DNA of 64,000 nucleotides from Alphaproteobacteria bacterium (GTDB lineage: Bacteria > Pseudomonadota > Alphaproteobacteria > SP197). This document shows positions 14,998 to 51,884 of this stretch, one piece after another. Under the pieces are notes generated by a model that had not been told where the DNA came from, made no database searches, and worked only from the letters and a program-made list of their open reading frames with translations. The stretch lies in assembly GCA_964291265.2 (NCBI GenBank), contig OZ219747.1, forward strand, positions 32,001 through 96,000, written 5' to 3'. The number at the start of each line of letters is the position of its first letter. The first letter of the stretch is position 1. A program made the translations under genes and the position numbers.

Positions 14998-15152
14998 CCT
15001 TCACCCCGGGCAGCCTGACGGTGTGCAAACCCGCACACCTTTCGAGTATGGAGCATGCACCTGAGCGCCTTCAGGCAGATTGATGATGCGTTGATCGGGC
15101 AATTTAGTGGACATGAGCTTTCGCGCTGCGCTTGGTTTGCGGTTCTTGAAGG

Positions 15153-16016
15153 CTACTTGGAAGGGAAGGCTGGTGTTCGTGCCTTGAGGACGTCGTTCCA
15201 GTCTTTGTGTCCGTCTGGGGGTCTCATGCGGAGAGCTCTTGGGTCTTGGCTGACGAGGCGCTCGGCGGCCTGTTCTCCGACGGGATCGGCGTCGAAGGCG
15301 ACGAGGATGCGCTTTGGCGTCCAGGCTTCGGCCCATGTTGGGAGACGGTAAGCGATGCCGGCGGTTGACAGGATCACGGTAGCGGATTGCCGACATTCCT
15401 TGAGGCACCATGCGGAGAGGGCGTCGATGGCGCTTTCGGTGATGATGATGGTGCGTGGCATGGAGCGGTCCACGGGGATCCAGAAGCTGCCGGCGGCCTT
15501 GCGTGATCCTCGCGCCATGGCTCTGTACTGCTTTCCGTCTGCGTTGGGGACGGTACCGACGATCTCGGCGCCGGAGAGGTCTCTTTGTGCGTTGGTGCAT
15601 GTGAAGACGGCGTTTCTGCGTTCGTCGGCGGCGACGAGGCCGTGCTGTCGGCAAGCGTCCAGGCAACGGTCTGGCAGGCGGCGGTCATGGGCGAGGTAGT
15701 GGCGTACGGCGTGCCAGGTTTCCTCGCAGTGCGTTGGTGTTCTCGGCCCCTTGCCGCCGGAGCGTGCGGTGAGGAGTGCGACGGCGTCGTTGAAGCTGCA
15801 GCGGTGTGCATGCATGACGAGATCGATGGCGCCGCCACCGCCGGACTGGGTGATGTGGTCGAACCAGCGTTGTCGGTTGACGCTGATGACGGATCCGTGG
15901 CGCTTGAAGCGTCGCGGGTCGCGCGGGTCTCTTCGGTAGCCGAGCCGCAGGGCGAGTGGTTCGAGGGGCTGGTTGCGGATGTCATCGAGATGCTGATTGT
16001 CCCAGGACCGGATCAT
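15153..16016 (-). CDS. DUF3991/Toprim primase-like protein
   Basis: WFDH...GGGGAIDLVMH N-terminal module; IITESAIDALS, LSTAG, AFDADPVGE, KDWNDVL Toprim motifs. Confidence 0.8.
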   Translation of the reverse strand: MIRSWDNQHLDDIRNQPLEPLALRLGYRRDPRDPRRFKRHGSVISVNRQRWFDHITQSGGGGAIDLVMHAHRCSFNDAVALLTARSGGKGPRTPTHCEETWHAVRHYLAHDRRLPDRCLDACRQHGLVAADERRNAVFTCTNAQRDLSGAEIVGTVPNADGKQYRAMARGSRKAAGSFWIPVDRSMPRTIIITESAIDALSAWCLKECRQSATVILSTAGIAYRLPTWAEAWTPKRILVAFDADPVGEQAAERLVSQDPRALRMRPPDGHKDWNDVLKARTPAFPSK

Positions 16017-16051
16017 GGTCTGTCGAGCCTCCTGCGTGGTGGACGGGGGGT

Positions 16052-16116
16052 GGTTCCCGTTGGCGGTTCCCACCTGAACTCCCAGGGTGAACGGGAACCG
16101 GGAACCGGGAACCGCC
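16052..16116. repeat. Inverted iteron-like array: 2x GGTTCCC facing 3x tandem GGGAACC
   Basis: GGTTCCC at 16052 and 16065; GGGAACC at 16093, 16100 and 16107; lies between the helicase-like and primase-like genes. Confidence 0.85.
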
Positions 16117-16150
16117 TGGCGTCGGGGCGTTTTGCGCCTGGTTGTTGCGG

Positions 16151-17098
16151 TCAGGCTTTGGCGACGCGATAGGCACCGGGACCGTCCTGTGCGACACGTC
16201 CTTCCTGGACGAGCTTGGCTAGAAGCGTGGCGACGGTCGTGTTCCGTGTTGGGACGCGGTCCCGGACCTGGCGCAGCGAGAGCGGGGCATCGGCGTCGGC
16301 GAGGACCTGGACGATGCGCTGTTCGGGGGTTGGCGGCTGCGGCCTGGCGCCGTCGGGTTCCTGTTGCCGCAGCTGCAGGGCGGCTCCGTTGCCGCTGTCG
16401 GTGAGTTCGATGTCGAGATCGGCGAGTCCGGGTGCGGCGCGGTGTTCGACGGTCATGAGGATGGTTTCGTGGCGGCGCCGCAGGTAGAGGTTGCTGTCGC
16501 CCCATGCGTGCAGCTCGCTGCTTCCGCGCAAGGCCTGTCCGGGCCGGCTGGCGGCGCTCTTGCGTGCGTGGTGGACGAGCAGCACGGCGGCGCCGGAGTG
16601 TCGCTGCACGTCGCGCAGGAAGCCGAGGATCGGCGCGATCTCGGCGACGGCGTTTTCATCGACGCCGTGCAGGCGGACGAGGGGGTCGAGGATGAGCAGG
16701 CGGGAGCCGTGACGCTCGACGGTCTCGAGCAGGCTCTGGCGGTCGGTTGGGTGGTCGAGGCGCAGTGCGGGGACGTCGATGACGGCGATGTCGAGGGTGT
16801 CGAAGTCGGCGCCGGCTGCGGCGGCGATGCCCTGGAGGCGGCGTCGCACGATGTGGCCGGCGTCCTCGGCGGCGAACATGAGCACCGGTCCGGGGTGCAC
16901 GGCCGGGAAGCGGCGCAGACAGGGGACGCCGGCGGCGACGGCGACGGCGAGATCGAGGGCGAGGAAGGACTTTCCGCACTTGGGTTCGCCGCCGATGATG
17001 CCGACGGCCTCGCGGCCCCACAGGCTGTCGACGAGCCACTGCCCCTCGGTTGGCCGGTCCTCGAGTTCGGCCGGGCTGCGGGTTGGCAGGCCGATCAT
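16151..17098 (-). CDS. RecA-fold AAA_25 (RepA/helicase-like) ATPase with probable C-terminal HTH
   Basis: WLVDSLW, GGEPKCGKS Walker A, AAED, LLILDP Walker B, LLVHHARK, ALRGSSELHAW. Confidence 0.85.
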   Translation of the reverse strand: MIGLPTRSPAELEDRPTEGQWLVDSLWGREAVGIIGGEPKCGKSFLALDLAVAVAAGVPCLRRFPAVHPGPVLMFAAEDAGHIVRRRLQGIAAAAGADFDTLDIAVIDVPALRLDHPTDRQSLLETVERHGSRLLILDPLVRLHGVDENAVAEIAPILGFLRDVQRHSGAAVLLVHHARKSAASRPGQALRGSSELHAWGDSNLYLRRRHETILMTVEHRAAPGLADLDIELTDSGNGAALQLRQQEPDGARPQPPTPEQRIVQVLADADAPLSLRQVRDRVPTRNTTVATLLAKLVQEGRVAQDGPGAYRVAKA

Positions 17099-17925
17099 CG
17101 TGTGCGCCTCGGCGGGATGGGTTCGCCCCAGGTTTCGAGGAAGAGCTTTTCGTCGAGCACCTCGCGGTCGGTGTCGAGGGCGACAGCGAGGAGGTTGTCG
17201 GCGAGGATGGTCAGGGAGCGCGGATTGCCGTCTGCATGGACGACGAGGGTCTCCTTGAGGCCGGGGGTCATGAGGCCTGGATTGCCGGCGGCGTCGAGCA
17301 GGTGGTCGAGCAGGCGGAGCAGTTCGTCGGGTTCGCAGCGCGTCATGACGAGGCGTTGACGGACCCGCGAGGCGACGGCTTGCAGGTCGGGGCTGTGCAG
17401 CTTGGCGAGCAGGCGGCTGTCGCCGGCCAGGACGACGCTGAGGATGGCGCGCGAGTCGAACTCCGTGGAGGCGAGCAGGCGCAGTTCGGTGAGCACGGCC
17501 TGCGGCATCTCCTGGGCCTCGTCGACGAGCAGGACCGGGCGCATGCGGGTGTCCTCGAGATGGGTGAGCCAGCACTCGCGCAAGGCCTTGAAGCCGGCCC
17601 AGAGGTTCCGGCGCAGGGTCGTGATGCCGAAGAGGTCGGTCATCTCGCGGTAGAAGTCTGCGGTGCTCGACGAGGGATGGGCGAGCACGGCGACGTCGAG
17701 GCCCTCCGCGGTCTCGAGACGCTCGTCGAGCAGGCGCAGGGCGACGCTCTTGCCGGTGCCATGCTCGCCGGCCACCACGGCGAAGCCGCCCTGGCGCACG
17801 AGCTGACGCTCGATCCTGCGGCAGAAGCTGTCGATCGCGGGCGTTGCGAGAAGGCCCTCGACCGGCAGGTCGGCGGCGAAGGGGTTCCACTTGAGGCCGT
17901 AATGGGTGAGGTGTTGGCGGTTCAT
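17095..17925 (-). CDS. ExeA-like AAA ATPase (transposition helper)
   Basis: YGLKWNPF, GEHGTGKS, LLVDEAQEM, VVLAGD, GNPRSL; overlaps transposase stop. Confidence 0.85.
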   Translation of the reverse strand: MNRQHLTHYGLKWNPFAADLPVEGLLATPAIDSFCRRIERQLVRQGGFAVVAGEHGTGKSVALRLLDERLETAEGLDVAVLAHPSSSTADFYREMTDLFGITTLRRNLWAGFKALRECWLTHLEDTRMRPVLLVDEAQEMPQAVLTELRLLASTEFDSRAILSVVLAGDSRLLAKLHSPDLQAVASRVRQRLVMTRCEPDELLRLLDHLLDAAGNPGLMTPGLKETLVVHADGNPRSLTILADNLLAVALDTDREVLDEKLFLETWGEPIPPRRTR

Positions 17926-19439
17926 GACATGTCTCCCTGATCGTTGTTGTCCTTGCCTTCGTCGTTCGGGCCGGCCTCCTTGCCGAAGGGCAACCATGCC
18001 GGGGGCAGGCCGGTGGCGTCCTGCTCGTCGCGGAGGCGCTTGAGCAGCGGCGCCGGCCCGGTCTGTGGCTTCACCTCGTCGTCTTCTCTCCGGCGCCCGG
18101 TCCGGCGGCGGAGCCCCTCGGCGTTGCGAGACTTGTCCACCGGACGCAGGGTCGAGATGCGGTCCCCGGTGCGGCCGTCGACCATGTCGATGCCGGAGAG
18201 GTCCCAGCGGGCGACGCGCAGGTCGATCTCGCGCAGGTGGCGCCACGGCGCCGGCAGTTGATAGCGGACACTCGCCACCGTCACCGTGGCGTCGGAGCGT
18301 CGCACCTTGCGACGCACCTTGATGCGGAAGGCGGCCCGGAGTTCGCTGCTGTCCGGGCATGTCCGCGAGGCGTCCTCGCTGTCGATCACGCGCCTGAGCG
18401 GCGTGACCCCCGTCTCGCGGTGTACGCGGCGGTGATACTCGCGCTCGAACCAGATGACGGTGGCGTCGTTCAGGTCCTGCAGGGTCAGGGTCTCGACGTT
18501 CTCGAGCATCGCCATCAGGCGGCCCTCGACCTGGGCGAACAGCACCTCCTGCTTGCCGTTCTGGTACGGGCTGCGGACAAGCGTGTGGTGGTGCAGCACG
18601 CCGAGGGCGTGCAGTCCCTCCTGCACCTCCCCGGCCGTCATCGCCGATCCGTTGTCGGTCAGAAGGGACCGCGGCAGCCCTCGCTTCATGAAGGCCTGGC
18701 TGATGCCGTGAACGAAGATCTCCGTGGTCTCCCCGAGATACCACTGCATGTGGCAGACGAGACGCGAATGGTCGTCGATGAAGCTGAGCAGGATCGGCGT
18801 CCTCCACTCCCCGGACGGCGTCAGCACGCGACAGGTCCGCGCATGGTGGAAGTCGGCGTGCCACAGGGCATGGCTGCGCGAGACCTCGTAGCTCAGCACC
18901 TCGCGCCCCTCGACCGCAGGCCGCTCCGCTTCACCACCGAACTTCCGCTGCCGCCGCCGCCGCTCCAGGCCCGCCGAACGCATGACCCGGGTCAGCGTCG
19001 CATAGGACGGCATCGGCCCGAGCGAAGGGTCGGCCTCGACCAGCGCGCAAAGGTTGTCGTGGTGGAGCTGAACCGACCACGTGGGGTGCGCCCTGTACTG
19101 GTCGCGCAAGGCCGCCATCAGCAGGGGCGAGACGCTCCGCGCACGACCGGCGTCGCAGCGCACCCGACGGCGCAGCGCCCGCACCGGATCCCGGTCGGCC
19201 GACCGCGCCTTGTAGTACCAGCGCTCGATCGTCGACACCGAGAACCGGATCGTGCCGCCCCTGACGGGATGCTCCCAGTCCCGCCGCGACAGCCGTTGAA
19301 GCTCGGCCCGCAGACCCCCCTTCGGCGGCGGCGACGCCAGCAGCGGGCCAACCACCGCAAAGCGCAGCCGCGTCCAGGCGTCCCCGGCGTCCGCTTCGTC
19401 CTTCGTCACCACGACAGCCTTCCTCCCTCGTCGTCCCAT
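17922..19439 (-). CDS. DDE transposase (rve core with Mu-like C-terminus)
   Basis: LWHADFHH, IDDHSR, LLTDNGSAM, SPYQNGKQE, YHRRVHRETGVTP, RKVRRSDATVTV. Confidence 0.9.
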   Translation of the reverse strand: MGRRGRKAVVVTKDEADAGDAWTRLRFAVVGPLLASPPPKGGLRAELQRLSRRDWEHPVRGGTIRFSVSTIERWYYKARSADRDPVRALRRRVRCDAGRARSVSPLLMAALRDQYRAHPTWSVQLHHDNLCALVEADPSLGPMPSYATLTRVMRSAGLERRRRQRKFGGEAERPAVEGREVLSYEVSRSHALWHADFHHARTCRVLTPSGEWRTPILLSFIDDHSRLVCHMQWYLGETTEIFVHGISQAFMKRGLPRSLLTDNGSAMTAGEVQEGLHALGVLHHHTLVRSPYQNGKQEVLFAQVEGRLMAMLENVETLTLQDLNDATVIWFEREYHRRVHRETGVTPLRRVIDSEDASRTCPDSSELRAAFRIKVRRKVRRSDATVTVASVRYQLPAPWRHLREIDLRVARWDLSGIDMVDGRTGDRISTLRPVDKSRNAEGLRRRTGRRREDDEVKPQTGPAPLLKRLRDEQDATGLPPAWLPFGKEAGPNDEGKDNNDQGDMS

Positions 19440-19461
19440 GGGAGGAAGGCCCTATACGGTC

Positions 19462-20076
19462 CTATGTCATCGCACTACAGGCACTCTCTGCGGGCGGCGA
19501 CAGACCATCGACGATCCTGCAGAAGCCGGTCCACGGCATGAGCCAGACCAGGCTCCGCAGAAGGCGCGATCGAAACGATCCGCCGCGCATCAAGCGCACC
19601 AGGGCCACAAGCGGAGGCTCGTCCGCCTCCACCGCCAGATCGCCACGTTTCCAGCGCCACGCCGCCGTCGCCGGGAACCTCTCCCGCCACCATCGACGCC
19701 ACCGGCCAAGCGTCCTCTCCGGGATGCCAGACATGCGGCTCGCCTTCGCCAGGGGAACACTGCCGCACAGAACCAGGAGGCTCGCAGCCAGGTATACCGG
19801 CGCCGCACGGAACCTCCGGCCGAAGAAGCGCACCGAGGGCGGAGTCGTCCGGCTCCTGCACTCAGCACAGCAGAAGCTGAAACGGCGGTTGTCGCCGCGA
19901 AGAGCAGGCGCAAGCGCGTGCGGCTTGCGCGGATACCGCGCGCTGTGAAGACGACCGCCGCAATGCGGGCATCCCTCCAGGCGGCAGCGCTCCGCCTCGG
20001 CCGCATCAATCCTCTCAAGGAGAGGCCAGACATGAGCGCAGGAAAGTATGGGACCCGGGAAGGAAACGTGCGACAT
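19462..20076 (-). CDS. Zn-ribbon/HTH transposon accessory protein (DUF6431-like)
   Basis: GCPHCGGRLHSARYPRKP, RFSFCCAECRSRTTPPSVRF, GIPERTLGRWRRWWRE; directly upstream of transposase. Confidence 0.7.
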   Translation of the reverse strand: MSHVSFPGPILSCAHVWPLLERIDAAEAERCRLEGCPHCGGRLHSARYPRKPHALAPALRGDNRRFSFCCAECRSRTTPPSVRFFGRRFRAAPVYLAASLLVLCGSVPLAKASRMSGIPERTLGRWRRWWRERFPATAAWRWKRGDLAVEADEPPLVALVRLMRGGSFRSRLLRSLVWLMPWTGFCRIVDGLSPPAESACSAMT

Positions 20077-20113
20077 TGACTGGCCTCCGGTGATCTCACC
20101 GTCACGGAGACAA

Positions 20114-20150
20114 GCCCCTCGGCCGACTTCTTGCAAGTCGGTCGAGGGGC
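20114..20150. other. Strong 16-bp-stem hairpin upstream of element A first gene
   Basis: GCCCCTCGGCCGACTT-cttgc-AAGTCGGTCGAGGGGC, 15/16 complementary. Confidence 0.7.
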
Positions 20151-20286
20151 AATCACCCCAGACCAGCAGACAATTCAAGCAAAACCGACGGAATCCACGT
20201 CAAAAATCGCGCAAACGCTTAGCACCCTATACCCCTGGCCTGCCATGGCTCCATGGCGCAGGACGAATCACCTGGAGAGGAATGCA

Positions 20287-21579: not shown

Positions 21580-23246
21580 GGGTGTGAGTCTAGTATGGCA
21601 GTTATGTTATGGTCTTAAGTTATGGACTTAGTTCCATTGTTTCATCTCATGCGGCCAGCGCCGGGGTGTGATGTGGGCTGATGTTGTCGTTGGCTGGTGC
21701 GTTGTCGCCCTCGATCATGGCGGTCCACGCGCTTTCGAAGCGGCCGGATTTGATGAGGGCGCGGAAGGTGAGAACGGCTTGTCCGCCGACGATGCGCCAG
21801 CGCATGCCGGAGCGCTTCATGCGCTGTGTGACGAGGGTCTTGTTGGCTGCCTCGACAAGTCCCGAGCCGATGGCGATCCCCTGTTGCTTCAGTGCGTGGT
21901 AGCGCATGCGGTGGCGATGCTTGCGGAAGAAGGCCAGTTCCCTGTCGATGTCGGCTCGGCCCGCCGGCTTGGCGGTGTCGCGAAGGTGGCGCAGCGCCCG
22001 GATCACCCTGTCGATGCCGCAGGGGTCGTGACGCAGGATCTCGCGGTACTTCTCGAACCAGTGGGGCGCCGCTGCATGGTCGGCCACCACGCGCAGATGC
22101 TCGCAGGCATGCCAGAAGTCGATCACCTCGGTTTCGGGTTCAAGACCAGAGAGGAAGGTCCAGTTGTCGGCGGCGGCGGCGGCGATGGCGCTGATCCTGA
22201 TCTCGGGACGCTCACGCCTGATATGCGCGACCTCGCTTGCCAGCTGCGCCTTCAGCGTGCACTTGCCGCGCTCGGGCATGCGGCCGAGATAGACGGTCTT
22301 CAGGCGCTCACCGTCGGCGTCGTGGAAGGAGACTGTGCCACAGGCCGCCTCGCGCCAGCAGGCCTCGCTACGGCCGTCCTCGCCGGCCCGCAGCGCCACC
22401 ATGACGCCGTCGAGCGAGACCGAGGCGGTGACCGCGTCCTGCGGAATGTCCTCGGCTTCCCGGATGCCATCCAGGGCCTGCGGGCCGAGACCTTCCCAAC
22501 GCTCCTGCATGGTCAGGCTCAAGCGCTGCAAGGTGCTCACAGACGGCGTCATGGCGCCGAGCTTGCCGAAGAACGCCTCCGCTTCCCGCGCCGTGCAGTG
22601 GACCATCATCATCAGCCCAAGCTGAGCCGCCGGCCGTGTCAGGTAGTCGTCGACGAGGCCCAGGCTTTCGTCCACCGGCATCAGCGACCGGCGGTGCCCG
22701 CCGGTGCGGTAGCGCGCACGCCGAAAGGTCACCGGGCCGAGCGAGGTCATGATCGTCTTCGGCGTCGGCGCCACACGGAACCAGTTCTGCCCGTCCCGCT
22801 CGATCCGGGGCGCACCGTCGTCCCGGGCCTCGGCACAGGCACCCAGGATCTCGCAGCCAAGCGCGTGCACGCTCTCAAGCACCCGCCGCTCCGCTTCCTC
22901 GAAGGCCTCGGCAGAGCGCTCTGAACCGAGCTGCCGATGACACACCGCGGTCACTTGCGTGACCGCTTCGACAACCCGAGGCGGCAAGCCGGAAAGATCG
23001 ATGGACGCGGAAGGCCGAAGCTGTGACACTGACATGGGAGCGCTCCTGATGTTGTGGGTTGAAGCCAGCATCATATCGCATCTTGCGGTGCGGAGCGTTC
23101 CCGCATCCACCGCCAAGCCCTGCTGTCGTGACAAAATCCGGTCCTGAAACGGGCAATTGTCACGAAACCCCGTTTTCGCCGCTCCATCGCGACCGCACAA
23201 CCGTGATAAATCAATGACTTGGCTTCGCCATACGAGAACTACACCC
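21580..23246 (-). mobile_element. ISKra4/ISLre2-like insertion sequence, 1667 bp
   Basis: TIRs GGGTGTGAGTCTAGTATGGC / GGGTGTAGTTCTCGTATGGC; 8-bp TSD TCACGGCG at 21572-21579 and 23247-23254. Confidence 0.9.
21647..23035 (-). CDS. ISKra4-like DDE transposase
   Basis: VSLDGVMV, IDFWHACEHL, IGSGLVEAANK, QRMKRSGMRW motifs. Confidence 0.9.
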   Translation of the reverse strand: MSVSQLRPSASIDLSGLPPRVVEAVTQVTAVCHRQLGSERSAEAFEEAERRVLESVHALGCEILGACAEARDDGAPRIERDGQNWFRVAPTPKTIMTSLGPVTFRRARYRTGGHRRSLMPVDESLGLVDDYLTRPAAQLGLMMMVHCTAREAEAFFGKLGAMTPSVSTLQRLSLTMQERWEGLGPQALDGIREAEDIPQDAVTASVSLDGVMVALRAGEDGRSEACWREAACGTVSFHDADGERLKTVYLGRMPERGKCTLKAQLASEVAHIRRERPEIRISAIAAAAADNWTFLSGLEPETEVIDFWHACEHLRVVADHAAAPHWFEKYREILRHDPCGIDRVIRALRHLRDTAKPAGRADIDRELAFFRKHRHRMRYHALKQQGIAIGSGLVEAANKTLVTQRMKRSGMRWRIVGGQAVLTFRALIKSGRFESAWTAMIEGDNAPANDNISPHHTPALAA

Positions 23247-23726
23247 TCACGGCGGCTGAGTCCGGGGTCGCGCTCCGCAAGGCCTTCGATCAGGTCAGTC
23301 GCTGCCTGACCCTGTCTCTTGTCACCCTGAACCAGGACCTTGGTAACAGGCCCGATCACTCGCACGCACAGGCGGCAACGGCCTCATCCACCCGCCAAGG
23401 CTGACGTCTGTCCGACGGGAATCCGCGACACTGGTCGACGCGAATGCGGTCTGCCACATGATGCGGCCGCGGTCCGACCCGCAGGTCGCCGCCTTCAGCG
23501 CAACTCCGGCATACGCGATTCGCCCGTATTCGCCAGGATCCGCTCAAGCCTCATGGAACGCCCGCCAGTCAGGCGCCTCGCACGACAAGGCCGCCGGCGG
23601 CAGACACAGGCCGCCGCCCGTCAGCTGCAGGGCCGCATCCCGCGGTTCGTCGAAAGCACCCCATGGCCTCGATCATGAACGAGATCGTGTGATCAGTCTG
23701 TTGGCAGATGCTCAGAGGGACCGGAA

Positions 23727-40881: not shown

Positions 40882-42663
40882 ATGAGCGATCCCGCCACGA
40901 TCTGGCTTGAGAAGTTCAACGGCGCACTGAGCCGGGGAGAGCGACGAGTCATCACCGAACTCTTTGGCGAGGAATGCTACTGGCGCGATCTTCTCGCCTT
41001 CACGTGGAACATCCGAACCATGCATGGCCGGGGCGAAATCCGCGTCATGCTGGAGACAACGCTCGACCGCCTGCAGCCCATCCACTTCACCCTCGCCGAG
41101 CCGCCGGTCGAGGTCGACGACATGGTGGAAGCCATACTCGCCTTCAAAACCGCCACGGCCCGAGGCACGGCGCACCTGCGCCTGAGGAATGGTGCCGCCT
41201 TCACACTGCTCACGATGATGGAATCGCTCATCGGACACGAGGAGCACGCGGGACCGCGACGCCCCCGGGGTGTCGTTCACGGGGCTGTGGCGCACCGCCG
41301 GACCTGGGCGGAGGACCGACAGCGGCATGCCCGTGACTTCGGTGTCGAAACACAACCCCATGTCGTCATCGTCGGCGGAGGCCAGGGAGGCCTGGCGCTT
41401 GGCGCCCGCCTGAAACGCCTGGGTGTGCCGAACCTGATCATCGAACGCCGGACCAGGCCGGGCGATTCCTGGCGCAGCCGCTACCGGACCCTGGTGCTTC
41501 ACGATCCTGTCTGGTACGACCACCTGCCCTACCTGCCGTTCCCCGACGACTGGCCCGTGTTCACGCCGAAGGACAAGATGGGGGATTGGCTGGAGGCGTA
41601 CGCCACGGTCATGGAACTCGACTTCCGGGGTTCGACGACATGCCTTGGCGCCCGCTTCGACGACGCCTCGCGCGAGTGGTCGGTCGACGTGGAGTGCCGG
41701 GGACAGCCTGTGACCCTTCGCCCCCGACACCTCGTGCTGGCAACAGGCGCCTACGGACCACCGCACATTCCCGAGATCGACGGCGCCCGCCGCTTCGCCG
41801 GAACGATCATGCATTCAAGCGATTACCAGAGCGGCGAGGCATGGTCGGACAAGCGGTGCGTGGTGATCGGATCGAACACGTCCGCCCACGACATCTGCGT
41901 CGATCTCTGGGAGTGCGGCGCCAGCGACATCACCATGGTGCAGCGCTCGTCAACGCTGGTGGTGCGCTCCGAGACCCTGATGGACATCGGGTTCGGCGCA
42001 CTCTACTCCGAAGAGGCTCTGGCGCGTGGCATCACCACGGAACGCGCCGATCTCGAGTTTGCGTCGGTGCCGTTTGCCCTGATGGCCGAGCGCGGCAGGA
42101 AGGCGACGCGGCTCATGGAAGAGCGCGACGCCGACCTCCTTCACCGTCTGGACATGGCCGGGTTCAGGCGTGATTCCGGCGTCGACGGAAGCGGCCTCAT
42201 GATGAAGGCCTTCCGCACGGGCAGTGGCTACTACATCGATGTCGGCGGTTCGGAACTCATCGCCGACGGCCGCGTGGGAATCAGGAGCGGTGTCGAGCCG
42301 ACGGGTTTCAGTGCCGACGCCGTCGCGCTCTCCGACGGTTCCTCGCTCAGGGCCGATCTCGTGGTCCTCGCCACGGGATACCACACCGTCCAGGAGACGA
42401 TTTCCGGGCTTCTCGGCGCAGAGACGGCCGCAAGGATCGGTCATTGCTGGGGCTACGGTTCGGGAACGCCGGGCGATCCCGGACCTTGGGAAGGCGAAAT
42501 GCGCAACCTGTGGAAGCCGCTGGCCCAGGAAGCGCTCTGGATCCATGGCGGCAACCTGCACCTCTCGCGGTTCTATTCCAGGATCCTCGCCCTTCAGATC
42601 AAGGCGCGCATGGAAGGCGTCCCGACCCCGGTCTTCGGAGAACCTTCCAACTCGGCCCGCTGA
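40882..42663 (+). CDS. Flavin-containing monooxygenase with N-terminal SnoaL-like domain
   Basis: YWRDLLAFTWN, GGGQGG, GDSWRSRY, MHSSDY, IGSNTSAHD, LATGY. Confidence 0.92.
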   Translation: MSDPATIWLEKFNGALSRGERRVITELFGEECYWRDLLAFTWNIRTMHGRGEIRVMLETTLDRLQPIHFTLAEPPVEVDDMVEAILAFKTATARGTAHLRLRNGAAFTLLTMMESLIGHEEHAGPRRPRGVVHGAVAHRRTWAEDRQRHARDFGVETQPHVVIVGGGQGGLALGARLKRLGVPNLIIERRTRPGDSWRSRYRTLVLHDPVWYDHLPYLPFPDDWPVFTPKDKMGDWLEAYATVMELDFRGSTTCLGARFDDASREWSVDVECRGQPVTLRPRHLVLATGAYGPPHIPEIDGARRFAGTIMHSSDYQSGEAWSDKRCVVIGSNTSAHDICVDLWECGASDITMVQRSSTLVVRSETLMDIGFGALYSEEALARGITTERADLEFASVPFALMAERGRKATRLMEERDADLLHRLDMAGFRRDSGVDGSGLMMKAFRTGSGYYIDVGGSELIADGRVGIRSGVEPTGFSADAVALSDGSSLRADLVVLATGYHTVQETISGLLGAETAARIGHCWGYGSGTPGDPGPWEGEMRNLWKPLAQEALWIHGGNLHLSRFYSRILALQIKARMEGVPTPVFGEPSNSAR

Positions 42664-42731
42664 TGTTGATGGCTGCATAGAACGGCGGGATTTCGGCGAT
42701 TTGCCGCGCTTTGTCAGGGTCGTGTTTCTTC

Positions 42732-42824
42732 CCTGTTGTCAGGTCCTATTGTCACGTCCTGTTGTCGTGGTTTGAGTGTTCGGCTGGTTGTCTCCCCGAG
42801 CGCCGCCGTCTTTTCCTATTGTCG
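42732..42824 (+). repeat. CCTRTTGTC subterminal repeats, three at 13-bp spacing plus a fourth
   Basis: CCTGTTGTCA 42732, CCTATTGTCA 42745, CCTGTTGTCG 42758, CCTATTGTCG 42815. Confidence 0.85.
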
Positions 42825-43087
42825 TTTTGGTCCGGTTCGGGTTCCGTCGACCTCTGCTTCGGTCTTGGTGACGGTTGCCGGGAGGGTTCCGGTTCCGAGG
42901 CACTCGCGGGATCGTCTGTCTTCCCTGTGGGCGGGTCGCGTTGTCCGGTCCCGGGGCGGCGTCTTTGCCGCCGCCCCGGGTGGATGCTAGATCGGCATCA
43001 AGAGAAAGAGCGATGCGATGCCGGGCGGAGTTGTGACGCCCCCCGGCGCAGCACCCGGACGAGCCGGTCACGGGGGACCGAACTCCC

Positions 43088-43618
43088 GTGTATTGTCGAG
43101 CCATTTTGCGTCCGGGTCCACCCCCGCTCTCGAGACGGACGGTGTGCACGACAGGACGACTGTTCAACTGCAGGCGGTGTCAGCGGCAGGTTGTTCTCTG
43201 CCGGTCGTGTGACCGGGGGCATGTGTATTGCTCCAAGGAGTGCAGGGAGCGGTCCCGGATCGAGCGGCGCCGCGCGTCGCGTCGTCGCTACCAGAGCACG
43301 CTGAAGGGCCGTGAGACGGGCCGTCACCGCCAGCGGCGTTACCGGCTCCGCAAGGCGGAGGAGGCGCGTGCGTTGAAGGCCAGGGCGGCGATGCTTGCCG
43401 AGATCATGGGCACGCAGACGTCTGCTGTGGTGCTGCTTGGCGACGTTCCGGCGGTGTCTGGAGACGCCGGTTCTGAAGAAATCGTTACGGACCACCCTTC
43501 CCGACTGCTGCCGACCTCCCTACCTGCGGTTGTGAAGGCGCAAGAGCGACGCGAATCGCCGCTTCGGTGCGCCAGATGCGGACGGGTCGTGACGCATGTG
43601 GTGCTGAGGGACCCGTGA
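43088..43618 (+). CDS. Cys-rich (Zn-finger) basic protein upstream of istA
   Basis: CRRCQRQVVLCRSCDRGHVYCSKEC...RRRYQST...RQRRYR...CARCGR; start uncertain. Confidence 0.65.
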   Translation: MYCRAILRPGPPPLSRRTVCTTGRLFNCRRCQRQVVLCRSCDRGHVYCSKECRERSRIERRRASRRRYQSTLKGRETGRHRQRRYRLRKAEEARALKARAAMLAEIMGTQTSAVVLLGDVPAVSGDAGSEEIVTDHPSRLLPTSLPAVVKAQERRESPLRCARCGRVVTHVVLRDP

Positions 43619-43650
43619 TGCGGCGTTGAGGAACCAAAGGGAGGGAGTTC

Positions 43651-45144
43651 ATGGCGATCGACGAGGACACGCGGGCGACGATCGTGCGGCTGTCGCGGGC
43701 CGAGGGCTGGGCTGTGGGGACGATTGCCCGGCATCTCGGCGTGCACCACGGCACGGTGACGCGGGCGCTCAAGGCGTCGGGGCAGGAGCGGCGGCCGCGG
43801 GCCAAGCTCATCGACCCCTTCGTTGCCTTCCTCGGGGAGCGTCTTGAGGCGTCGCCGGACCTTCCGGCCAGCACGCTCTGGCGACAGGTCGTGGCTCTGG
43901 GCTACCGCGGCGGCGAGGATCACTTCCGTCACGACCTGCGCCGCCTTGGGCTGAGGCCGGTGAAGAGGCCCGAGCCGTCGCTGCGGCTGAGCTTCCTTCC
44001 GGGCGAGCAGGCGCAGGTTGACTGGGCCGAGTTCGGGAAGGTCCGCATCGGCCGGGCGGAGCGCAGGCTCATGGGGCTTCTCGTCACCCTCAGCTACTCG
44101 CGCCAGACTGTCCTGAGCCTGTTCCACGACGCGCGGATGGCCAGCTTCCTGCAAGGCCATGTCGAGGCTTTCGCGGCATTCGGGGGTGTGCCGCGGAGGC
44201 TTCTGTACGACAACCTGAAGAGTGCCGTGGTGACGCGCCGCGGCAAGGCGGTCACCTATCATCCGATGCTGCTCGGCCTCGCGGCCCACTATGCCTTCGA
44301 ACCGAGCGCCGCCTGGCCCAGGAGCCCGCAGGAGAAGGGCCGCGTGGAACGCCGTGTGCGCTTCGCGCGCACCGGGTTCTTCGCCGGGCACGACATCACG
44401 GTCCCGCTCGGCGAGCTCAACGCCGCGGTTCGGGAGTGGTGCTTCGGCGCCGCCGCGGAGCGGCCCTGGCCGGACGACGACAGTCTCCTGGTGCGGGACG
44501 CCTTCGCCCGGGAGAGGGAGCACCTGATCGTCCTTCCCGCCGATCCCTTCCCGCATCACGAGGTCCGCCCGGTGCGCATCGACAAGACCTGCCACGCCCG
44601 CTTCGACACCAACGACTACAGCGTTCCGGGTAGCTTCTCCAAGGCCCTGCTGACGCTGGTCGCCGACCGCGACGAGGTCCGCATCCTCGACGGCGCCGAC
44701 GAGGTCGCGCGCCACCGACGCTCCTACGACAGGAAGCAGGCCGTCACCGATCCGGAGCATGCCAGGGCGATCGCCGCGGGCAAGCGGCGGGCCCGCTCCA
44801 TGAGCGTCCGCGACCGGGTCCTGCGCACCGTGCCGCGGGCCGAGGAGATGCTGGCGCGCGCCGGGACCAACGGGCGCAACGTGGCCTCCTGCGCCCGGAT
44901 GCTGGAGACGCTTCTCAACGCGCACGGCGCCGACGCTCTCGACCGGGCTGTCGCCACGGCGCTGGAGCGCGGCTCGTGCCACCCCGAAACCGTGCGCGTC
45001 ATCATCGAGGAGCGCCGCCGGGAGCAGGGCCTGCCGCCCCTCAGCATCGCCGACGACGGCCGCGGCGGCCGTGGCACGACGCCGCGGGGGACCGCTCTCG
45101 ACGCCTACGACAGGCCCGAAGCCAGCGCCAGGAACAAGACATGA
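43651..45144 (+). CDS. istA: IS21 family transposase IstA
   Basis: IARHLGVHHGTVTR, PGEQAQVDWAEF, FGGVPRRLLYDNLKSAV, EKGRVERRV; GGGAG RBS. Confidence 0.95.
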   Translation: MAIDEDTRATIVRLSRAEGWAVGTIARHLGVHHGTVTRALKASGQERRPRAKLIDPFVAFLGERLEASPDLPASTLWRQVVALGYRGGEDHFRHDLRRLGLRPVKRPEPSLRLSFLPGEQAQVDWAEFGKVRIGRAERRLMGLLVTLSYSRQTVLSLFHDARMASFLQGHVEAFAAFGGVPRRLLYDNLKSAVVTRRGKAVTYHPMLLGLAAHYAFEPSAAWPRSPQEKGRVERRVRFARTGFFAGHDITVPLGELNAAVREWCFGAAAERPWPDDDSLLVRDAFAREREHLIVLPADPFPHHEVRPVRIDKTCHARFDTNDYSVPGSFSKALLTLVADRDEVRILDGADEVARHRRSYDRKQAVTDPEHARAIAAGKRRARSMSVRDRVLRTVPRAEEMLARAGTNGRNVASCARMLETLLNAHGADALDRAVATALERGSCHPETVRVIIEERRREQGLPPLSIADDGRGGRGTTPRGTALDAYDRPEASARNKT

Positions 45145-45842
45145 GCGAGCTCAGGGAGCGTGCCCGGGCGCTCGGCCTCCACGGGCTCGTCGAACGCTGG
45201 GACGAGGTCGCCGGGACCGCATGGATCGAGGAGGTGGTCAGCGGCGAGGAACAGGCCCGCAGGGCCCGCAGCCACGAGCGCCGCCGCGCCGCGGCGCGGC
45301 TGCCCGCCTTCAAGCCCCTGGCGGACTTCGACTGGACATGGCCGCGCGACATCAGCCGGGCTCATGTCGAAGCGCTCCTCGGCCTCGGCTTCGTCGACCG
45401 TGCGGACAACGCCGTGCTCGTCGGCGGGCAGGGCACCGGAAAGACCATGATCGCCGCCAACGTGGCGCACCAGGCCCTGCTGCACGGCCACACCGTCCGC
45501 TTCGAGAAGGCGCCGGAACTGCTCGAGGCACTCGCCGAGACCGTCTCGCGCAGCGAGCTGCGCCGCCGCCTCGCGATCCTCGCCAGGCCCCGCCTGCTCA
45601 TCCTCGACGAAATCGGCTACGTGACCCTCGAAAGCCACCATGCCGACATCCTCTACGCCATCGTCTCGCGGCGCTATCAGCGCCGCTCGACCATGGTCAC
45701 GACAAGCCTCGCCTTCGCCCAGTGGGACCGCGTCTTCCCCAGCGCCTCCGGCATCGCCGGCACCGTCGACCGGCTCATGCACGACGCAACCCTCATCTCC
45801 ATCGACAGCGACTCCTGGCGGCTCAGGCGTGAAACCCGATAA
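45141..45842 (+). CDS. istB: IS21 helper ATPase IstB
   Basis: LADFDWTWP, GGQGTGKT, LLILDEIGY, VDRLMH, SWR. Confidence 0.93.
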   Translation: MSELRERARALGLHGLVERWDEVAGTAWIEEVVSGEEQARRARSHERRRAAARLPAFKPLADFDWTWPRDISRAHVEALLGLGFVDRADNAVLVGGQGTGKTMIAANVAHQALLHGHTVRFEKAPELLEALAETVSRSELRRRLAILARPRLLILDEIGYVTLESHHADILYAIVSRRYQRRSTMVTTSLAFAQWDRVFPSASGIAGTVDRLMHDATLISIDSDSWRLRRETR

Positions 45843-46722
45843 ACCCCGCCGCGTCGACTTCGACGCCGTCAAGCGCATGCCGTTCGAACGCATCGCCGCC
45901 GACTGGGGATACGTCCGCGACGAACAGGCCTCGACACGCGCCAACCCCGTCCTGTGCGCACCCGGCCTGCCGAAGCTCGTCACGAAGTGCCTCAACAACG
46001 GACACTGGGTCTACTTCAACACCCAGAACGATGAAGACAACGGAACCGTCATCGACTTCATGCTCAACCGCGGACTGGCCTTCGCCGACATCTGCACCCG
46101 CTTCGCAGCACCCGACGCCGCGCCACGCGACTTCCGCAGCCTCTGGGCCGCGGCAACGCCCGATGCGGCCCCGGACTGGCTCACCGGGCGCGGCATCCTC
46201 CCGGAGACCCTCGACACCTGCCGCCCCCTGGTCCGCCGCGACCACAACGGACGCGTCCTCTTCGCCCATCGCAACAGGAAGCGAAAGCTCACCGGCTTCG
46301 AGATCGGTCCCCCCGACGGACCGAAACGCTTCGCCACCGGTGGAACCCGAAGCCTGTTCGCCGTCCGCGCCGGAACCGCCGCGGACCTCGAGGCCCTCGT
46401 CATCACCGAAAGCGCCGTCGACGCCCTCAGCCTGGCCCAGATCGACCAATGTCCCCCCAGCCACGCCTTCCTCTCCACCGCCGGGGCACCCTCGCGAAGA
46501 CAGCACGAACAGATCAGCCTCGCCGCAAGCAGCCTGCCCAACGTCAGGACCATCGTCCTCGCCCAGGACCACGACGAGGCCGGAGAGCGACAGGCCGAAA
46601 CCCTGCGCAAAAAGATGAAGCTCCCCTCCCACGTCTCGTTCCACAGACGCAGACCGCCGGAAAACGCCGACTGGAACGACGTCGTCAACGCCAGGACCAA
46701 AGAACCACAAGCGAGATCATGA
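45829..46722 (+). CDS. DUF3991/Toprim primase-like protein
   Basis: GHWVYFN...DNGTVIDF; WLTGRGI; LVITESAVDALS, LSTAG, AQDHDEAGE, ADWNDVV. Confidence 0.82.
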   Translation: MKPDKPRRVDFDAVKRMPFERIAADWGYVRDEQASTRANPVLCAPGLPKLVTKCLNNGHWVYFNTQNDEDNGTVIDFMLNRGLAFADICTRFAAPDAAPRDFRSLWAAATPDAAPDWLTGRGILPETLDTCRPLVRRDHNGRVLFAHRNRKRKLTGFEIGPPDGPKRFATGGTRSLFAVRAGTAADLEALVITESAVDALSLAQIDQCPPSHAFLSTAGAPSRRQHEQISLAASSLPNVRTIVLAQDHDEAGERQAETLRKKMKLPSHVSFHRRRPPENADWNDVVNARTKEPQARS

Positions 46723-47039
46723 CCACGTCCGTCACAAGGAGACCACTCATGCCCCTCACGCCCGCCGAAAAGCAGCGGCGATACCGGGAACGGCGCAAGG
46801 CCGGCATCCCTCCCGTCCACACCCCAAAGCACCGTGACCGGCGCTCGCGACCGCAACGCTGGAACGACGCCGTGGCCGAACTGCGCGCCCTGCAGGACGA
46901 ATGGCGTGACCACCTCGACAGCATCCCCGAAAGCCTCCGTGACACGCCTTACGGAGAACGCCTGCAGAGCGTCGCCGATGCCGACATCGAGGCCCTCGAG
47001 GACATCGAACCGCCACGCGGCTACGGAAGGGATACGTGA
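46719..47039 (+). CDS. Small hypothetical protein
   Basis: MPLTPAEKQRRYRERRK...RSRPQRWNDAVAELRALQDEW...PPRGYGRD; ATGA overlap with primase stop. Confidence 0.7.
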   Translation: MTTSVTRRPLMPLTPAEKQRRYRERRKAGIPPVHTPKHRDRRSRPQRWNDAVAELRALQDEWRDHLDSIPESLRDTPYGERLQSVADADIEALEDIEPPRGYGRDT

Positions 47040-47144
47040 TCCCGCAAGACCCTTGAACGCGGTCACGCGTTACCATCCAGGAATGAGAACGTCTCACCCC
47101 GACGCGCTTCTCAGCCTCCCCGGGAAACCCCCGGGCCGTCCAAA

Positions 47145-47480
47145 CGACACCGCATCACGAGACTGCCGCAGCCTCTGAGCCGCAGAAACGCCCGATCCGC
47201 CGCCGGGCTGGCTCACAGGTCGCAGCATCCGCCCGAAAACACTCAACGCCTGCCGCACCCTGCGCCGCCGCAACCGCAACGCACACAGCCTCTTCGCCCA
47301 GCGCAACAGAAACCGTAAGCTCTCCAGCCTCAAGATCGTCCCGCCCGACGAACCACGACGAGGCCGGAAAACGCCAGAACGAGACCACGCGCAAAGATTC
47401 TGAAGCTCCCCTCCCACATCACATTCCACAAACGCCGAACGCCAGAAAACGCCGACTGGAACGACATCGTCAACGTCAAT
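47145..47480 (+). pseudogene. Internally deleted degenerate duplicate of the element B primase gene
   Basis: Aligns by eye to ~46113-46322 joined to ~46567-46692; contains TGG>TGA stop. Confidence 0.85.
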
Positions 47481-47802
47481 GCAAGACCAATGGGATCCAA
47501 CAATAGGCAGAAAACAAAGACCGGGCGGACCTTCGTCCAATGCCGCACGTTCTCCTACCGTGGTCACCCACTCACACGATCAGCGCCCAAAAGAGCGGTT
47601 CTCCGCCAATATCCCGCCGTTCTAAATCGCCGCCGACAGCTGATCGAAGCATCCCGGCTTCGCCGGCCCCATCCGGCCCTTCCGTCCCGAGGGGCACGGG
47701 GAATCTCGTGCCGGCTGCTTCCCGTGTGGGGATGCGCGGTCCGGCCTCACCACATCCCTTGACCGTCGAGGCCCGGGTGAGATGCCTCCCCGGTACCGGA
47801 AG

Positions 47803-49191: not shown

Positions 49192-49878
49192 TCACGAGCG
49201 CAGCCAGATTGGATCCTTGACGTGTTCCAGGAGGAAGGCCTCGTGTCGAGCGATCTCTTCCGCCGTGGGCTCGTGGGGGCGCGGAGGGCGAAATGCGCGG
49301 GGGGAATCGCCGGATGACGCGGTGAGGAGGGAAGCCTCGGGAGTGGCGAGGTCGAGGACCGACTGGCGGCCGCCCACCAGCTCGAGATAGACCTCGGCCA
49401 GCAGTCGCGCGTCGACAAGGGCGCCGTGAGCCTCCTGGCGGGTCGAGGCGTCGATGCGAAAGCGCCTTGTCAGGGCATCGAGACTGTTCTGTTCGCCGGG
49501 ATACGTCCGCCGCGCCAGGGCCAGGGTGTCGATGACGCGCCCGGAGTCGATCGGACCCCGACCGCATCGCTCGAGTTCGCTGTTGAGAAACCCCAGATCG
49601 AACTCGGCGTTGTGGATGACTAGGGAGCTCTCTGCCAGAAACTCCAGGAACTCCTCCGCCTTGTCCCGGAACGTGGGCTGTTCGACCAGGAAGGCAGCCG
49701 TCAATCCGTGAACGGCGAGAGCCGCTTCCTCGCTGTCGCGTCCGGGATTGAGATAGGTGCTCCAGGAACGTCCCGTGGGAACGTGGTTCATGAGTTCGAC
49801 GCAACCGATCTCGACAACGCGATGACCGGCAGCGTGATCGAGTCCCGTGGTTTCGGTGTCGAGGACGACTTCACGCAT
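49192..49878 (-). CDS. dnaQ: DNA polymerase III epsilon subunit
   Basis: MREVVLDTETTG, HNAEFD, HGALVDA, GGRQ, C-terminal EEIARHEAFL...IW tail. Confidence 0.95.
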   Translation of the reverse strand: MREVVLDTETTGLDHAAGHRVVEIGCVELMNHVPTGRSWSTYLNPGRDSEEAALAVHGLTAAFLVEQPTFRDKAEEFLEFLAESSLVIHNAEFDLGFLNSELERCGRGPIDSGRVIDTLALARRTYPGEQNSLDALTRRFRIDASTRQEAHGALVDARLLAEVYLELVGGRQSVLDLATPEASLLTASSGDSPRAFRPPRPHEPTAEEIARHEAFLLEHVKDPIWLRS

Positions 49879-50395
49879 GGTCTTCCCTGTGCTTGAGGAG
49901 TGCGATGTAAACGGCGGCCAGCAACCTGGCGTCGGACAGTGCGCGATGGGTGCGCCCGGGAACGATCTCGATGCCGAGGCGCCGTGCCAGGGCGCCAAGA
50001 TCGTTGGCCCTTCCAGGAAAGATGCTGCGCGCCATGCTGAGCGTGTCGACGGCCCTGGAGCCGCGGATCGGCTCCATGCCCTCCAGGACCAGTTCGTTGT
50101 TGAGGAAGGCGAGATCGAACGCCGCATTGTGCATGACAAGGCGGCTCGAGGCGAGAAACCCCATCAGGTCCCTCGCCCTTTCCCTGAACAGGGGCTGTTT
50201 TCTGAGGAAGGCGTCGGGCAGACGGTGAATGTCGAAGGCTTCCGCATGGTTGCAGCGCCGGGGATTGAGAAAGGTGTTCCACGTGCGCCCGGTCATCACG
50301 CGGTCCACGAGTTCGACGCAGCCGATCTCGACAAGCCTGTGACCTTCCATGATGTCAAGGCCGGTGGTTTCCGTATCGAGAACGATCTCGCGCAT
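49871..50395 (-). CDS. Second DnaQ-like DEDDh exonuclease lacking the C-terminal tail
   Basis: MREIVLDTETTG, HNAAFD, HRALSDA; 174 aa; overlaps the dnaQ start. Confidence 0.85.
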   Translation of the reverse strand: MREIVLDTETTGLDIMEGHRLVEIGCVELVDRVMTGRTWNTFLNPRRCNHAEAFDIHRLPDAFLRKQPLFRERARDLMGFLASSRLVMHNAAFDLAFLNNELVLEGMEPIRGSRAVDTLSMARSIFPGRANDLGALARRLGIEIVPGRTHRALSDARLLAAVYIALLKHREDHA

Positions 50396-50466
50396 GACGA
50401 TCGAGGGGCCAGAGACCATCATCGTATCCCCTCGACACCGGGAAATCGACACGCCTGGGACCCCGT

Positions 50467-50676
50467 TCATCAACAGGCACGTGTGAACCGGCTTCCATGG
50501 TGGCCAGACTCTCCCCTGACGGACCGGGAGATGGCGCTTGAGGACTCATGACGCAGGCCCGGGCATGGCCGCCGGTCATCACGACATGATGAGCCCGGCG
50601 CAGCTCATCCCGGTCCGGCATCCGGCTGCGGCTCAACTCTCCCCATGCCGATCGAACCTGTCGGACCGAGCACATC
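50467..50676 (-). pseudogene. Degenerate, internally deleted copy of coaE plus its downstream flank
   Basis: Matches ~51918-52092 (coaE 3' end) fused to ~52532-52563 (coaE 5' end, CCCATGCCGATCGAACCTGTC). Confidence 0.85.
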
Positions 50677-50803: not shown

Positions 50804-51369
50804 GTGTCCGCAGCCATCGCGGCGTTGAGTCGGGCCGCTGCGATGGGCTTGCCGCCGCGGCAAATCACGTGCCTCGACGACTCCGCCATGCGGGAGCTCA
50901 AGAACGGCCTGGCCGAGGCAGGCATTGGCCGAACGCTGCTCGCAGGTCTGCATGCCCGGTTGCACTTCGATCCGGTTCGGTTTTCGGCACTGCTGAAGCA
51001 GATCAGCGAGGCACTGGACCAATCGCGGCACCCGCGCACGAGTGGCGCGCCCTCCAGGATGTCCTGGGACTGGACTTGCTCACCCGTCTCTTGGTCGTCT
51101 CGCATTCCAGTACACGACGCTACCTGTCGGGTAGCCGCGACACGCCTGATCCGATCGCCGGACGACTGCATTTTGTTGCCCTTGTCGTTGGCGACCTTGC
51201 AGGGGCCTACAACAATATCGGGATTCGGCGCTGGTTCGACCGCGAGCGCCGCCGGCTCGACGGCCATACGCCCGCACAGGCACTCGGTGAGAGCTGGTCG
51301 CCCGATGACGACGGGCCAAGCCGGGTCCGGGAACTCTCCCGCGCACTGGCGTCGTCGCCAGTCACATGA
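50804..51369 (+). pseudogene. Xre/MbcA/ParS-like antitoxin, one frameshift near 51025
   Basis: ...ISEALDQS switches frame to APAHEWRALQDVLG...RRYLSG...GIRRWFDRERRRLDGHTPAQAL; ATGA overlap with RES gene. Confidence 0.7.
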
Positions 51370-51884
51370 TCGTATTCCGACACACGGATCCTCGTTTTCC
51401 CTTCTTGCGCGAAGATTCTTCGCAGCCCGCTGGTCGATGGAATGCTGCAAACGAGCTGACCCATTGCTTCTGCGATACACCTGATGGCGCGTGGGCAGAG
51501 TTCCTGCGCCACGAAGAGATCCACGATCCACAGGATGTCCTCACCATTCGCCGCGCACTCCGGGCCGTGGAGATCGGTGAGCCGTCGACGCTGCAGCCTG
51601 ACCTTCCTCGTGACATTCTGACCGGAGGCCCGGAGAGTTGGCACGCGTGCAGGCAGTTCGCTCAATCGTATCGGAACAAGATCACTGGCGTCGTCGCGCC
51701 TTCGGCCGCTCTGCACCGGGACGGAGCCCGCGGCTGGCGCGTTGATGGCGGTGTCAAGCGCGGTCCCGTTCGCCACGGCCTGGTCTTTGCACTGTTCGGT
51801 CCCCGGCCCGATCTGGTCGGTTGGGCGGAGACCATCGAAGGTCGGCCAAGCGACGACCTGCTTGCCGTTGTACGCCACTTCTGA
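51366..51884 (+). CDS. RES-domain toxin-like protein
   Basis: AGRWN, WAEFLRH, GVVAPSAAL (R, E, S residues). Confidence 0.8.
   Translation: MIVFRHTDPRFPFLREDSSQPAGRWNAANELTHCFCDTPDGAWAEFLRHEEIHDPQDVLTIRRALRAVEIGEPSTLQPDLPRDILTGGPESWHACRQFAQSYRNKITGVVAPSAALHRDGARGWRVDGGVKRGPVRHGLVFALFGPRPDLVGWAETIEGRPSDDLLAVVRHF

Follow-up and report, generated by a model that had tools for sequence, protein, structure and literature searches.

Insertion sequences (IS) of the IS21 family are described, in the available text of one account, as two open reading frames (ORFs) between inverted repeats (PMC10122671). The accessible parts of two further papers propose a copy-out/paste-in route for them (PMC11208146; 10.1101/2023.06.07.543989), in which replication turns a figure-eight into a double-stranded circle (PMC7780238, partial text). 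Here we report an IS21-family element that carries a primase-like gene of the DUF3991/Toprim type directly behind istB. It lies in a stretch of 64,000 nucleotides (nt), hereafter the window, from an Alphaproteobacteria bacterium (GenBank assembly GCA_964291265.2, contig OZ219747.1, positions 32,001 to 96,000). The element resembles IS21 and IS5376 in its DDE transposase (IstA), AAA+ helper (IstB), TG...CA repeats, mostly 5-bp target-site duplication (TSD) and lack of a target consensus, none being found among the insertions in its own genome. It differs from them in belonging to a family of 4.0-5.3 kb in which istA is preceded by a zinc-finger gene and istB followed by a primase-like one; canonical IS21 has two ORFs, whereas this element has four that are conserved, and a fifth, orf5. 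Its transposase, helper, ends and duplication place it within the IS21 family, as a variant of the canonical two-gene layout.

Other described systems resemble the primase-like protein itself. IEE, as far as the available text of its description goes, is a primase-family protein acting on copy-out/paste-in IS: it is an AEP PrimPol-helicase, enhances the excision of several IS families and is encoded separately from them (10.1101/2023.06.07.543989). The element's protein, in contrast, is of the Toprim type and is encoded within the element's ends. With DnaG-type primases (T7 gp4, DnaG, the N-terminal part of Twinkle) it shares acidic residues and a predicted architecture of a fold like their zinc-binding domain (ZBD) followed by an RNA-polymerase/Toprim domain; unlike them it has no zinc ligands and no helicase or helicase-binding domain, is 14-20% identical to them, and its activity is predicted from a model. 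Plasmid DUF3991/Toprim proteins, found free or behind MobA/VirD2, MobA/MobL or MobV relaxases, are of the same family and domain order, whereas the element's gene stands alone inside transposon ends and its product, at most 38% identical to them, forms its own clade (SH-aLRT 97, a likelihood-ratio measure of branch support). A literature search by title and start of abstract returned no report joining IS21 to a primase or Toprim protein, no IS21 with a third ORF and no transposon with its own primase; an entry in ISfinder or in a subscription source is possible.

The element starts with TGTTGATGGC and ends with GCCGCCGACA. A preliminary description of the locus, made from the letters alone, had proposed a bounded IS21-family element flanked by a GCTGA duplication, and the TG...CA ends, an empty site and 32 copies bear this out. 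The terminal inverted repeats it put at about 49 bp do exist, in imperfect form (34 of 49 positions match). The gene order it gave (zinc finger, istA, istB, Toprim, a small ORF and a degenerate Toprim copy) was confirmed by ORFs and alignment, as was an insertion directly after the stop codon of an intact flavin monooxygenase-like gene, whose TGA forms the last three bases of the left GCTGA. The empty site was seen in two sequencing runs (X2 and X3), in which contigs link 42658/42660 to 47639/47641, skipping 4,980 bases and keeping one copy of the target duplication; in run X1, depth was ~2,000 over the element and ~55 on its flanks. Left ends number 44 in the genome and right ends 38; the 32 complete copies are at least 98.6% identical across the first 4.4 kb, and 27 of them have a 5-7 bp duplication. 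The window copy is one of two in a minority short form; the remaining 30 measure 5.32-5.35 kb and carry an extra tandem duplication of ~350 bp near the right end. This is a real and recently very active mobile element.

Throughout this expansion the Toprim gene stayed intact in 31 of the 32 copies. Among GTDB genomes, 52 loci were found via the primase. In 42 of these, from 10 genomes titled as Paracoccaceae, Amylibacter, Rhodobacter or Alphaproteobacteria metagenome-assembled genomes, istB lies directly upstream, and the other 10 are fragments of at most 155 amino acids (aa). Since this search was anchored on the primase, we repeated it from IstA in 33 genomes of the host's order. Five other genomes carried a close IstA, followed by the primase in three; the remaining two hold a three-gene element (3,175 bp) and an IstA cut short. 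Altogether, istB and primase are paired in 14 genomes, the element's own included. In five related genomes every IstA copy is paired with a Toprim gene (28, 5, 2, 1 and 1 elements), one of the 28 being frameshifted and the last single element broken in both genes.

The pairing also persists across considerable divergence. The lowest identities at which the primase is retained are 49% for IstA, 63% for IstB and 60% for the primase, and its coupling to istB is maintained through several different overlaps. Minimal elements of 4.0-4.2 kb with TSDs (L010, L043, L175) end ~1,030 nt past istB, which leaves room for the primase only. Median pairwise ratios of nonsynonymous to synonymous change (dN/dS) among 10 elements, as simple counting estimates in GC-rich DNA, were 0.43 for the primase, 0.37 for IstA, 0.36 for IstB and 0.55 for the zinc finger. 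Trees of primase, IstA and IstB recover the same deep groups, with weakly supported shallow ones. The 10 primase-bearing rows of a 92-row IstA tree lie on one side of a branch (SH-aLRT 94 by a quick method), which fits a single gain. The coupling is kept in 14 genomes and as far as 49% IstA identity, and dN/dS resembles that of IstA and IstB; the Toprim gene is therefore a stable, selected and coupled part of the element, not passing cargo. The preliminary description had likewise placed the primase in the ist operon and judged it more likely an accessory factor of transposition or replication than random cargo; stability, selection and coupling uphold the case against random cargo, within one clade that excludes all 80 outer relatives. 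It had also reasoned that closest relatives lacking the Toprim gene, or carrying variable cargo there, would speak against it; close relatives keep the gene.

The product matches Toprim_2 and DUF3991. In a structure model with a mean confidence (pLDDT) of 90.7, a zinc-less ZBD fold (residues ~8-95) precedes an RNA-polymerase domain (97-290). The closest structure is T7 primase 1nui (Z 15.4, root-mean-square deviation 3.3, 178 residues aligned), followed by Aquifex DnaG and Twinkle, and a profile search of solved structures also points to primases (E 5e-10). When the N-terminal domain is folded alone, its three best matches are zinc-binding domains of primases, at modest Z scores of 6.4, 5.5 and 4.3; Foldseek with this domain alone returned nothing at E 0.001. 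The acidic active-site residues align with those of the host's DnaG, and all 66 aligned homologues (29/29 close, 37/37 distant) keep E194, D247, D249 and D281. From fold and residues we predict that gene 4 encodes a T7-gp4/DnaG-type primase, which is not classed as DnaG proper because the CHC2/Cys4 zinc ligands are missing.

The other genes of the element (Table 1) fall into conserved and local ones. IstA scores 222.6 bits against NF033546 (cut-off 160) and its DDE triad (D124, D187, E233) is kept in 40 of 40 aligned sequences. IstB matches PF01695 at E 2e-50 and reaches 192 bits against NF038214, slightly below the cut-off of 200. The zinc-finger ORF has six cysteines, each conserved in 71 or 72 relatives, and it marks the whole subgroup because it precedes istA in 71 of the 72 outer relatives with room to check. 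Since these relatives are primase-less, a donation of zinc to the primase in trans is unlikely. Only one other related genome carries an orf5 homologue (41-44% identity), three of the 32 own-genome copies have a nonsense change in it, and we found no plasmid match, no Pfam family and no likeness to the zinc-finger ORF. The degenerate copy consists of two Toprim-gene pieces (80-82% DNA identity) fused across a deletion. By sequence, orf5 looks like a variable passenger, and it and the degenerate copy are apparently local features, absent from most relatives. Rfam gave no match in the element, its left non-coding region included, nor was a sigma-70 promoter or terminator matched inside it. A phage collection gave one weak match. 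A search for the L1/L2 and R1/R2 repeats of IS21 found that some short motifs recur within the left 330 bp, with no clear L2/R2 pair. The left non-coding region (42720-42960), the part that differs most between copies, is T-rich with short TGTTGTC-like repeats (six near-matches).

Table 1. Features of the element, its insertion site and a second primase-bearing transposon (window coordinates).
Feature	Position	Strand	Remarks
Whole element	42664..47638	+	4,975 bp, TG...CA ends; short form of 32-copy family
Left target-site duplication GCTGA	42659..42663	+	
Right target-site duplication GCTGA	47639..47643	+	
Left terminal inverted repeat	42664..42712	+	
Right terminal inverted repeat	47590..47638	-	
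Flavin monooxygenase-like host gene, 593 aa	40882..42663	+	Intact; empty allele seen
Cys-rich zinc-finger-like ORF	43088..43618	+	Start uncertain; matches no known family
istA, DDE transposase	43651..45144	+	NF033546 above cut-off
istB, AAA+ ATPase, Walker A and B	45141..45842	+	ATGA overlap with istA
DUF3991/Toprim primase-like gene, 297 aa	45829..46722	+	14-nt overlap with istB
orf5, 106 aa, no known family	46719..47039	+	ATGA overlap with Toprim gene
Degenerate, internally deleted partial Toprim copy	47145..47478	+	
Non-IS21 multi-copy transposon, 5.16 kb, TA...CA ends	15062..20221	-	

We then asked what occupies the fourth slot in sister elements. A complete istB is present in 69 of the 80 outer relatives, and in 46 of these at least 500 nt follow it. 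A family of small proteins follows istB in 44 of 70 sister loci (42 of the 59 with at least 350 nt). Its members are 55-95 aa long and share a W-T-P-E-Q-A core and a tail that is acidic. The last residue is F or W in 40 of the 44, and the last two are PF or PW in 31, whereas none of 198 other frames from these regions ends in PF; the tail count is partly circular since the profile was seeded with 31 PF-ending frames. Among 120 homologues that the alignment retrieved, 83 are also PF-ended, yet the profile includes the tail. Several terminate in DDIPF, and SSB, the host's protein for binding single-stranded DNA, in DFDDGIPF. Two papers, in their available text, describe the tail of SSB, DDDIPF, as a docking motif that is conserved (PMC5872125) and DnaG as being bound by the SSB tail (PMC3632105). 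The slot-4 PF protein thus resembles the SSB docking tail and, judging from its residues, may be a mimic of it. It has 212 homologues at E 0.001 and no Pfam family, and RefSeq calls it a hypothetical protein, overlapping istB, in two plasmids; examples are L062:3118-3321 and L103:3185-3385 (among L061-L140, directly after istB) and L207:5233-5445. It was absent from the 10 primase-bearing loci checked and from the element's own genome. An atlas search with the zinc-finger and PF-tail proteins returned unnamed clusters only. The slot also holds a helical small-gene family (L104:2753-3136, L108:3376-3732, L116:3082-3471, L130:2890-3183), a second small-gene family (L120:3653-3943, L129:3408-3644), and two genes with one weak match each, to HTH_36 or an OB-fold (L080:3442-3864, L092:3634-3912).

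Primases of this family were also captured by other transposons. Genome G033 holds a different IS21 element (IstA ~32% identical; 3,423 bp, TG...CA ends) with an intact-looking DUF3991/Toprim gene. It has five copies in all, 8-bp duplications in the three copies with both flanks read, and a 68% variant in the same genome (L186:5747-9169 on G033:C6, L187-L191, L009:2172-5494). The non-IS21 transposon in the window, with six full placements and a 5-bp duplication at each, encodes an unknown ORF, an rve integrase, an AAA_22 ATPase, an AAA_25 helicase-like protein and a DUF3991/Toprim protein. These two primases are 40% alike, 27-29% identical to the element's primase, and group apart from it, which indicates at least two captures and three transposon backbones. 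With its primase and helicase-like genes, the non-IS21 transposon may be the better candidate for self-replication.

The role that we favour for the element's primase, as a proposition about as likely to hold as to fail, is to assist, as an accessory protein, in replication during copy-out transposition, its activity being predicted only. An IS21-family lineage would have taken up a plasmid-type primase gene once, directly behind istB, and kept it under selection. IstA would nick one end and join it to the other, and replication would turn the joined intermediate into a double-stranded circle. Priming on the displaced or single strand, otherwise the job of host proteins, would fall to the element's primase, and IstA and IstB would insert the circle with a 5-bp duplication. 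In sister elements, the SSB-like tail of the small protein would recruit host replication proteins to the same end. The primase gene would raise efficiency without being essential. IS911 is said to need host DnaG for circle formation, which a literature search did not confirm. More tentatively, and with somewhat less than even expectation, we suggest that an exchangeable fourth gene handles replication, most IS21-type elements using an SSB-tail mimic and this clade its own primase, and that primases of this family were acquired independently, to the same end, by unrelated DDE/AAA transposons.

A number of observations weigh against an accessory priming role. None of the 80 more distant metagenomic IstA relatives (41-49% identity) had a primase match, and 32 of them have credible end pairs 157-582 nt past istB, a count that omits six doubtful pairs. 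At least three elements (L093, L105, L177) have TSDs and no fourth gene at all. Such complete elements imply that the subgroup transposes without a primase and that the slot is variable, not essential. In the second IS21 element the Toprim gene faces istB and is not co-transcribed with it. The tail count is, as stated, partly circular. No abutted element ends, as expected of a circle or tandem junction, were found in the assembly, nor a right-left joint among contigs of the three sequencing runs, which cannot reveal rare circles. In the protein, D198 (which we take to be the position of DnaG D269) is Asn in 15 of 29 close homologues and Asp in the element's own; the zinc ligands are lost, YFNT aligning to CFGC of the host protein; the position of T7 Lys122, presumably an important residue, is Glu; and neither a helicase-binding domain in the protein nor a helicase in the element is present. 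Finally, the host has its own dnaG, priA and ssb, and we rejected on these grounds the idea that the primase fills a gap in the host.

Some of these points would be explained if the Toprim protein served transposition without priming, as a scaffold for single-stranded DNA or fork proteins, a target selector or a regulator, its acidic residues holding metal or DNA. The D198N substitution, the lost zinc ligands and the filling of the slot elsewhere by non-enzymatic small proteins suit this idea, which we nevertheless regard as unlikely: the four acidic residues are invariant in close and distant homologues alike, and element copies have neither a target consensus nor a replichore orientation bias (11:11 and 5:4).

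The history of the Toprim family suggests another setting, namely between cells. The family comprises 8,047 clusters at E 0.001. Homologues occur in 448 plasmid records, 324 of them conjugative or mobilizable. A relaxase domain stands in front in 13 of 36 long homologues scanned, these having been chosen by length from 150 listed, and one plasmid homologue adjoins relaxase and type IV coupling protein genes on a small plasmid. The relaxase fusions suggest that the family works in single-strand transfer settings, which also suits the priming role favoured above. The primase could accordingly prime incoming conjugative strands or keep excised circles, like the likely role of its relaxase-fused ancestors, and the patchy presence of the element (6 of 33 genomes of the order) agrees with this. 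We consider this rather less probable still, given that the element has no relaxase, helicase or replication protein and that the gene was retained during expansion inside single genomes, a point weakened by possible complementation in trans.

It is improbable, in our estimate, that the gene is selected cargo which benefits or addicts the host, as a nuclease, toxin, defence or repair function unrelated to mobility. Toprim folds do occur in nucleases and topoisomerases, which appear among the lower-ranked structural matches, and orf5 is coupled behind the Toprim gene in the window element; against this, the best structural and sequence matches are primases, orf5 is missing from most relatives, and more than 30 copies per genome fit selfish spread better. 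Neutral plasmid debris caught between the ends is very improbable and largely refuted, for although the right part does gather debris (orf5, the degenerate copy, the tandem duplication), dN/dS of the Toprim gene is well under 1 and like that of the ist genes, and its coupling is kept in varied forms down to 49% IstA identity.

Several further observations concern the element's behaviour and surroundings. At least four of the 32 complete copies are nested in copies of the element itself, where the 3.5% of the genome that it occupies would predict ~1 (own genome, G000:C2 295923-308929, 4058043-4075257, 4237410-4248078 and 4144635-4152391). This self-nesting gives no sign of target immunity, or else reflects survival in harmless sites. 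Two copies of the 5.16-kb transposon are interrupted by the element. One contig of run X1 joins the left 265 bp (to window position 42928) to the 3' part of the primase gene (from 46481) and an alternative right end, and probably represents a non-autonomous derivative with an internal deletion; other genomes have comparable 3' fragments of the primase gene beside right ends (L053, L055, L057-L059). Elsewhere in the window, a multi-copy transposase-like gene (21647-23365, +, 572 aa) matches ~15 places of the genome with its first 420 bases. From a reading of the ORF list, two adjoining ORFs look like DnaQ-type exonucleases (49192-50473, -) and a small gene pair like an antitoxin and a RES-domain protein (50869-51884, +). 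The host genome is heavily loaded with mobile elements.

To what is known of IS21, this locus adds an element in strong expansion whose primase looks intact, and it shows that within a single IstA subgroup the same slot can hold a primase or a putative tail mimic or stand empty. An account of IS21 as a two-gene element overlooks accessory genes that are conserved, and at least three transposon backbones have received a primase from one plasmid family. Host machinery is credited with the replication that forms circles from copy-out/paste-in intermediates, and its recruitment is poorly understood. The three natural states of a single slot (primase, SSB-tail-like peptide, empty) make this question of recruitment directly testable.

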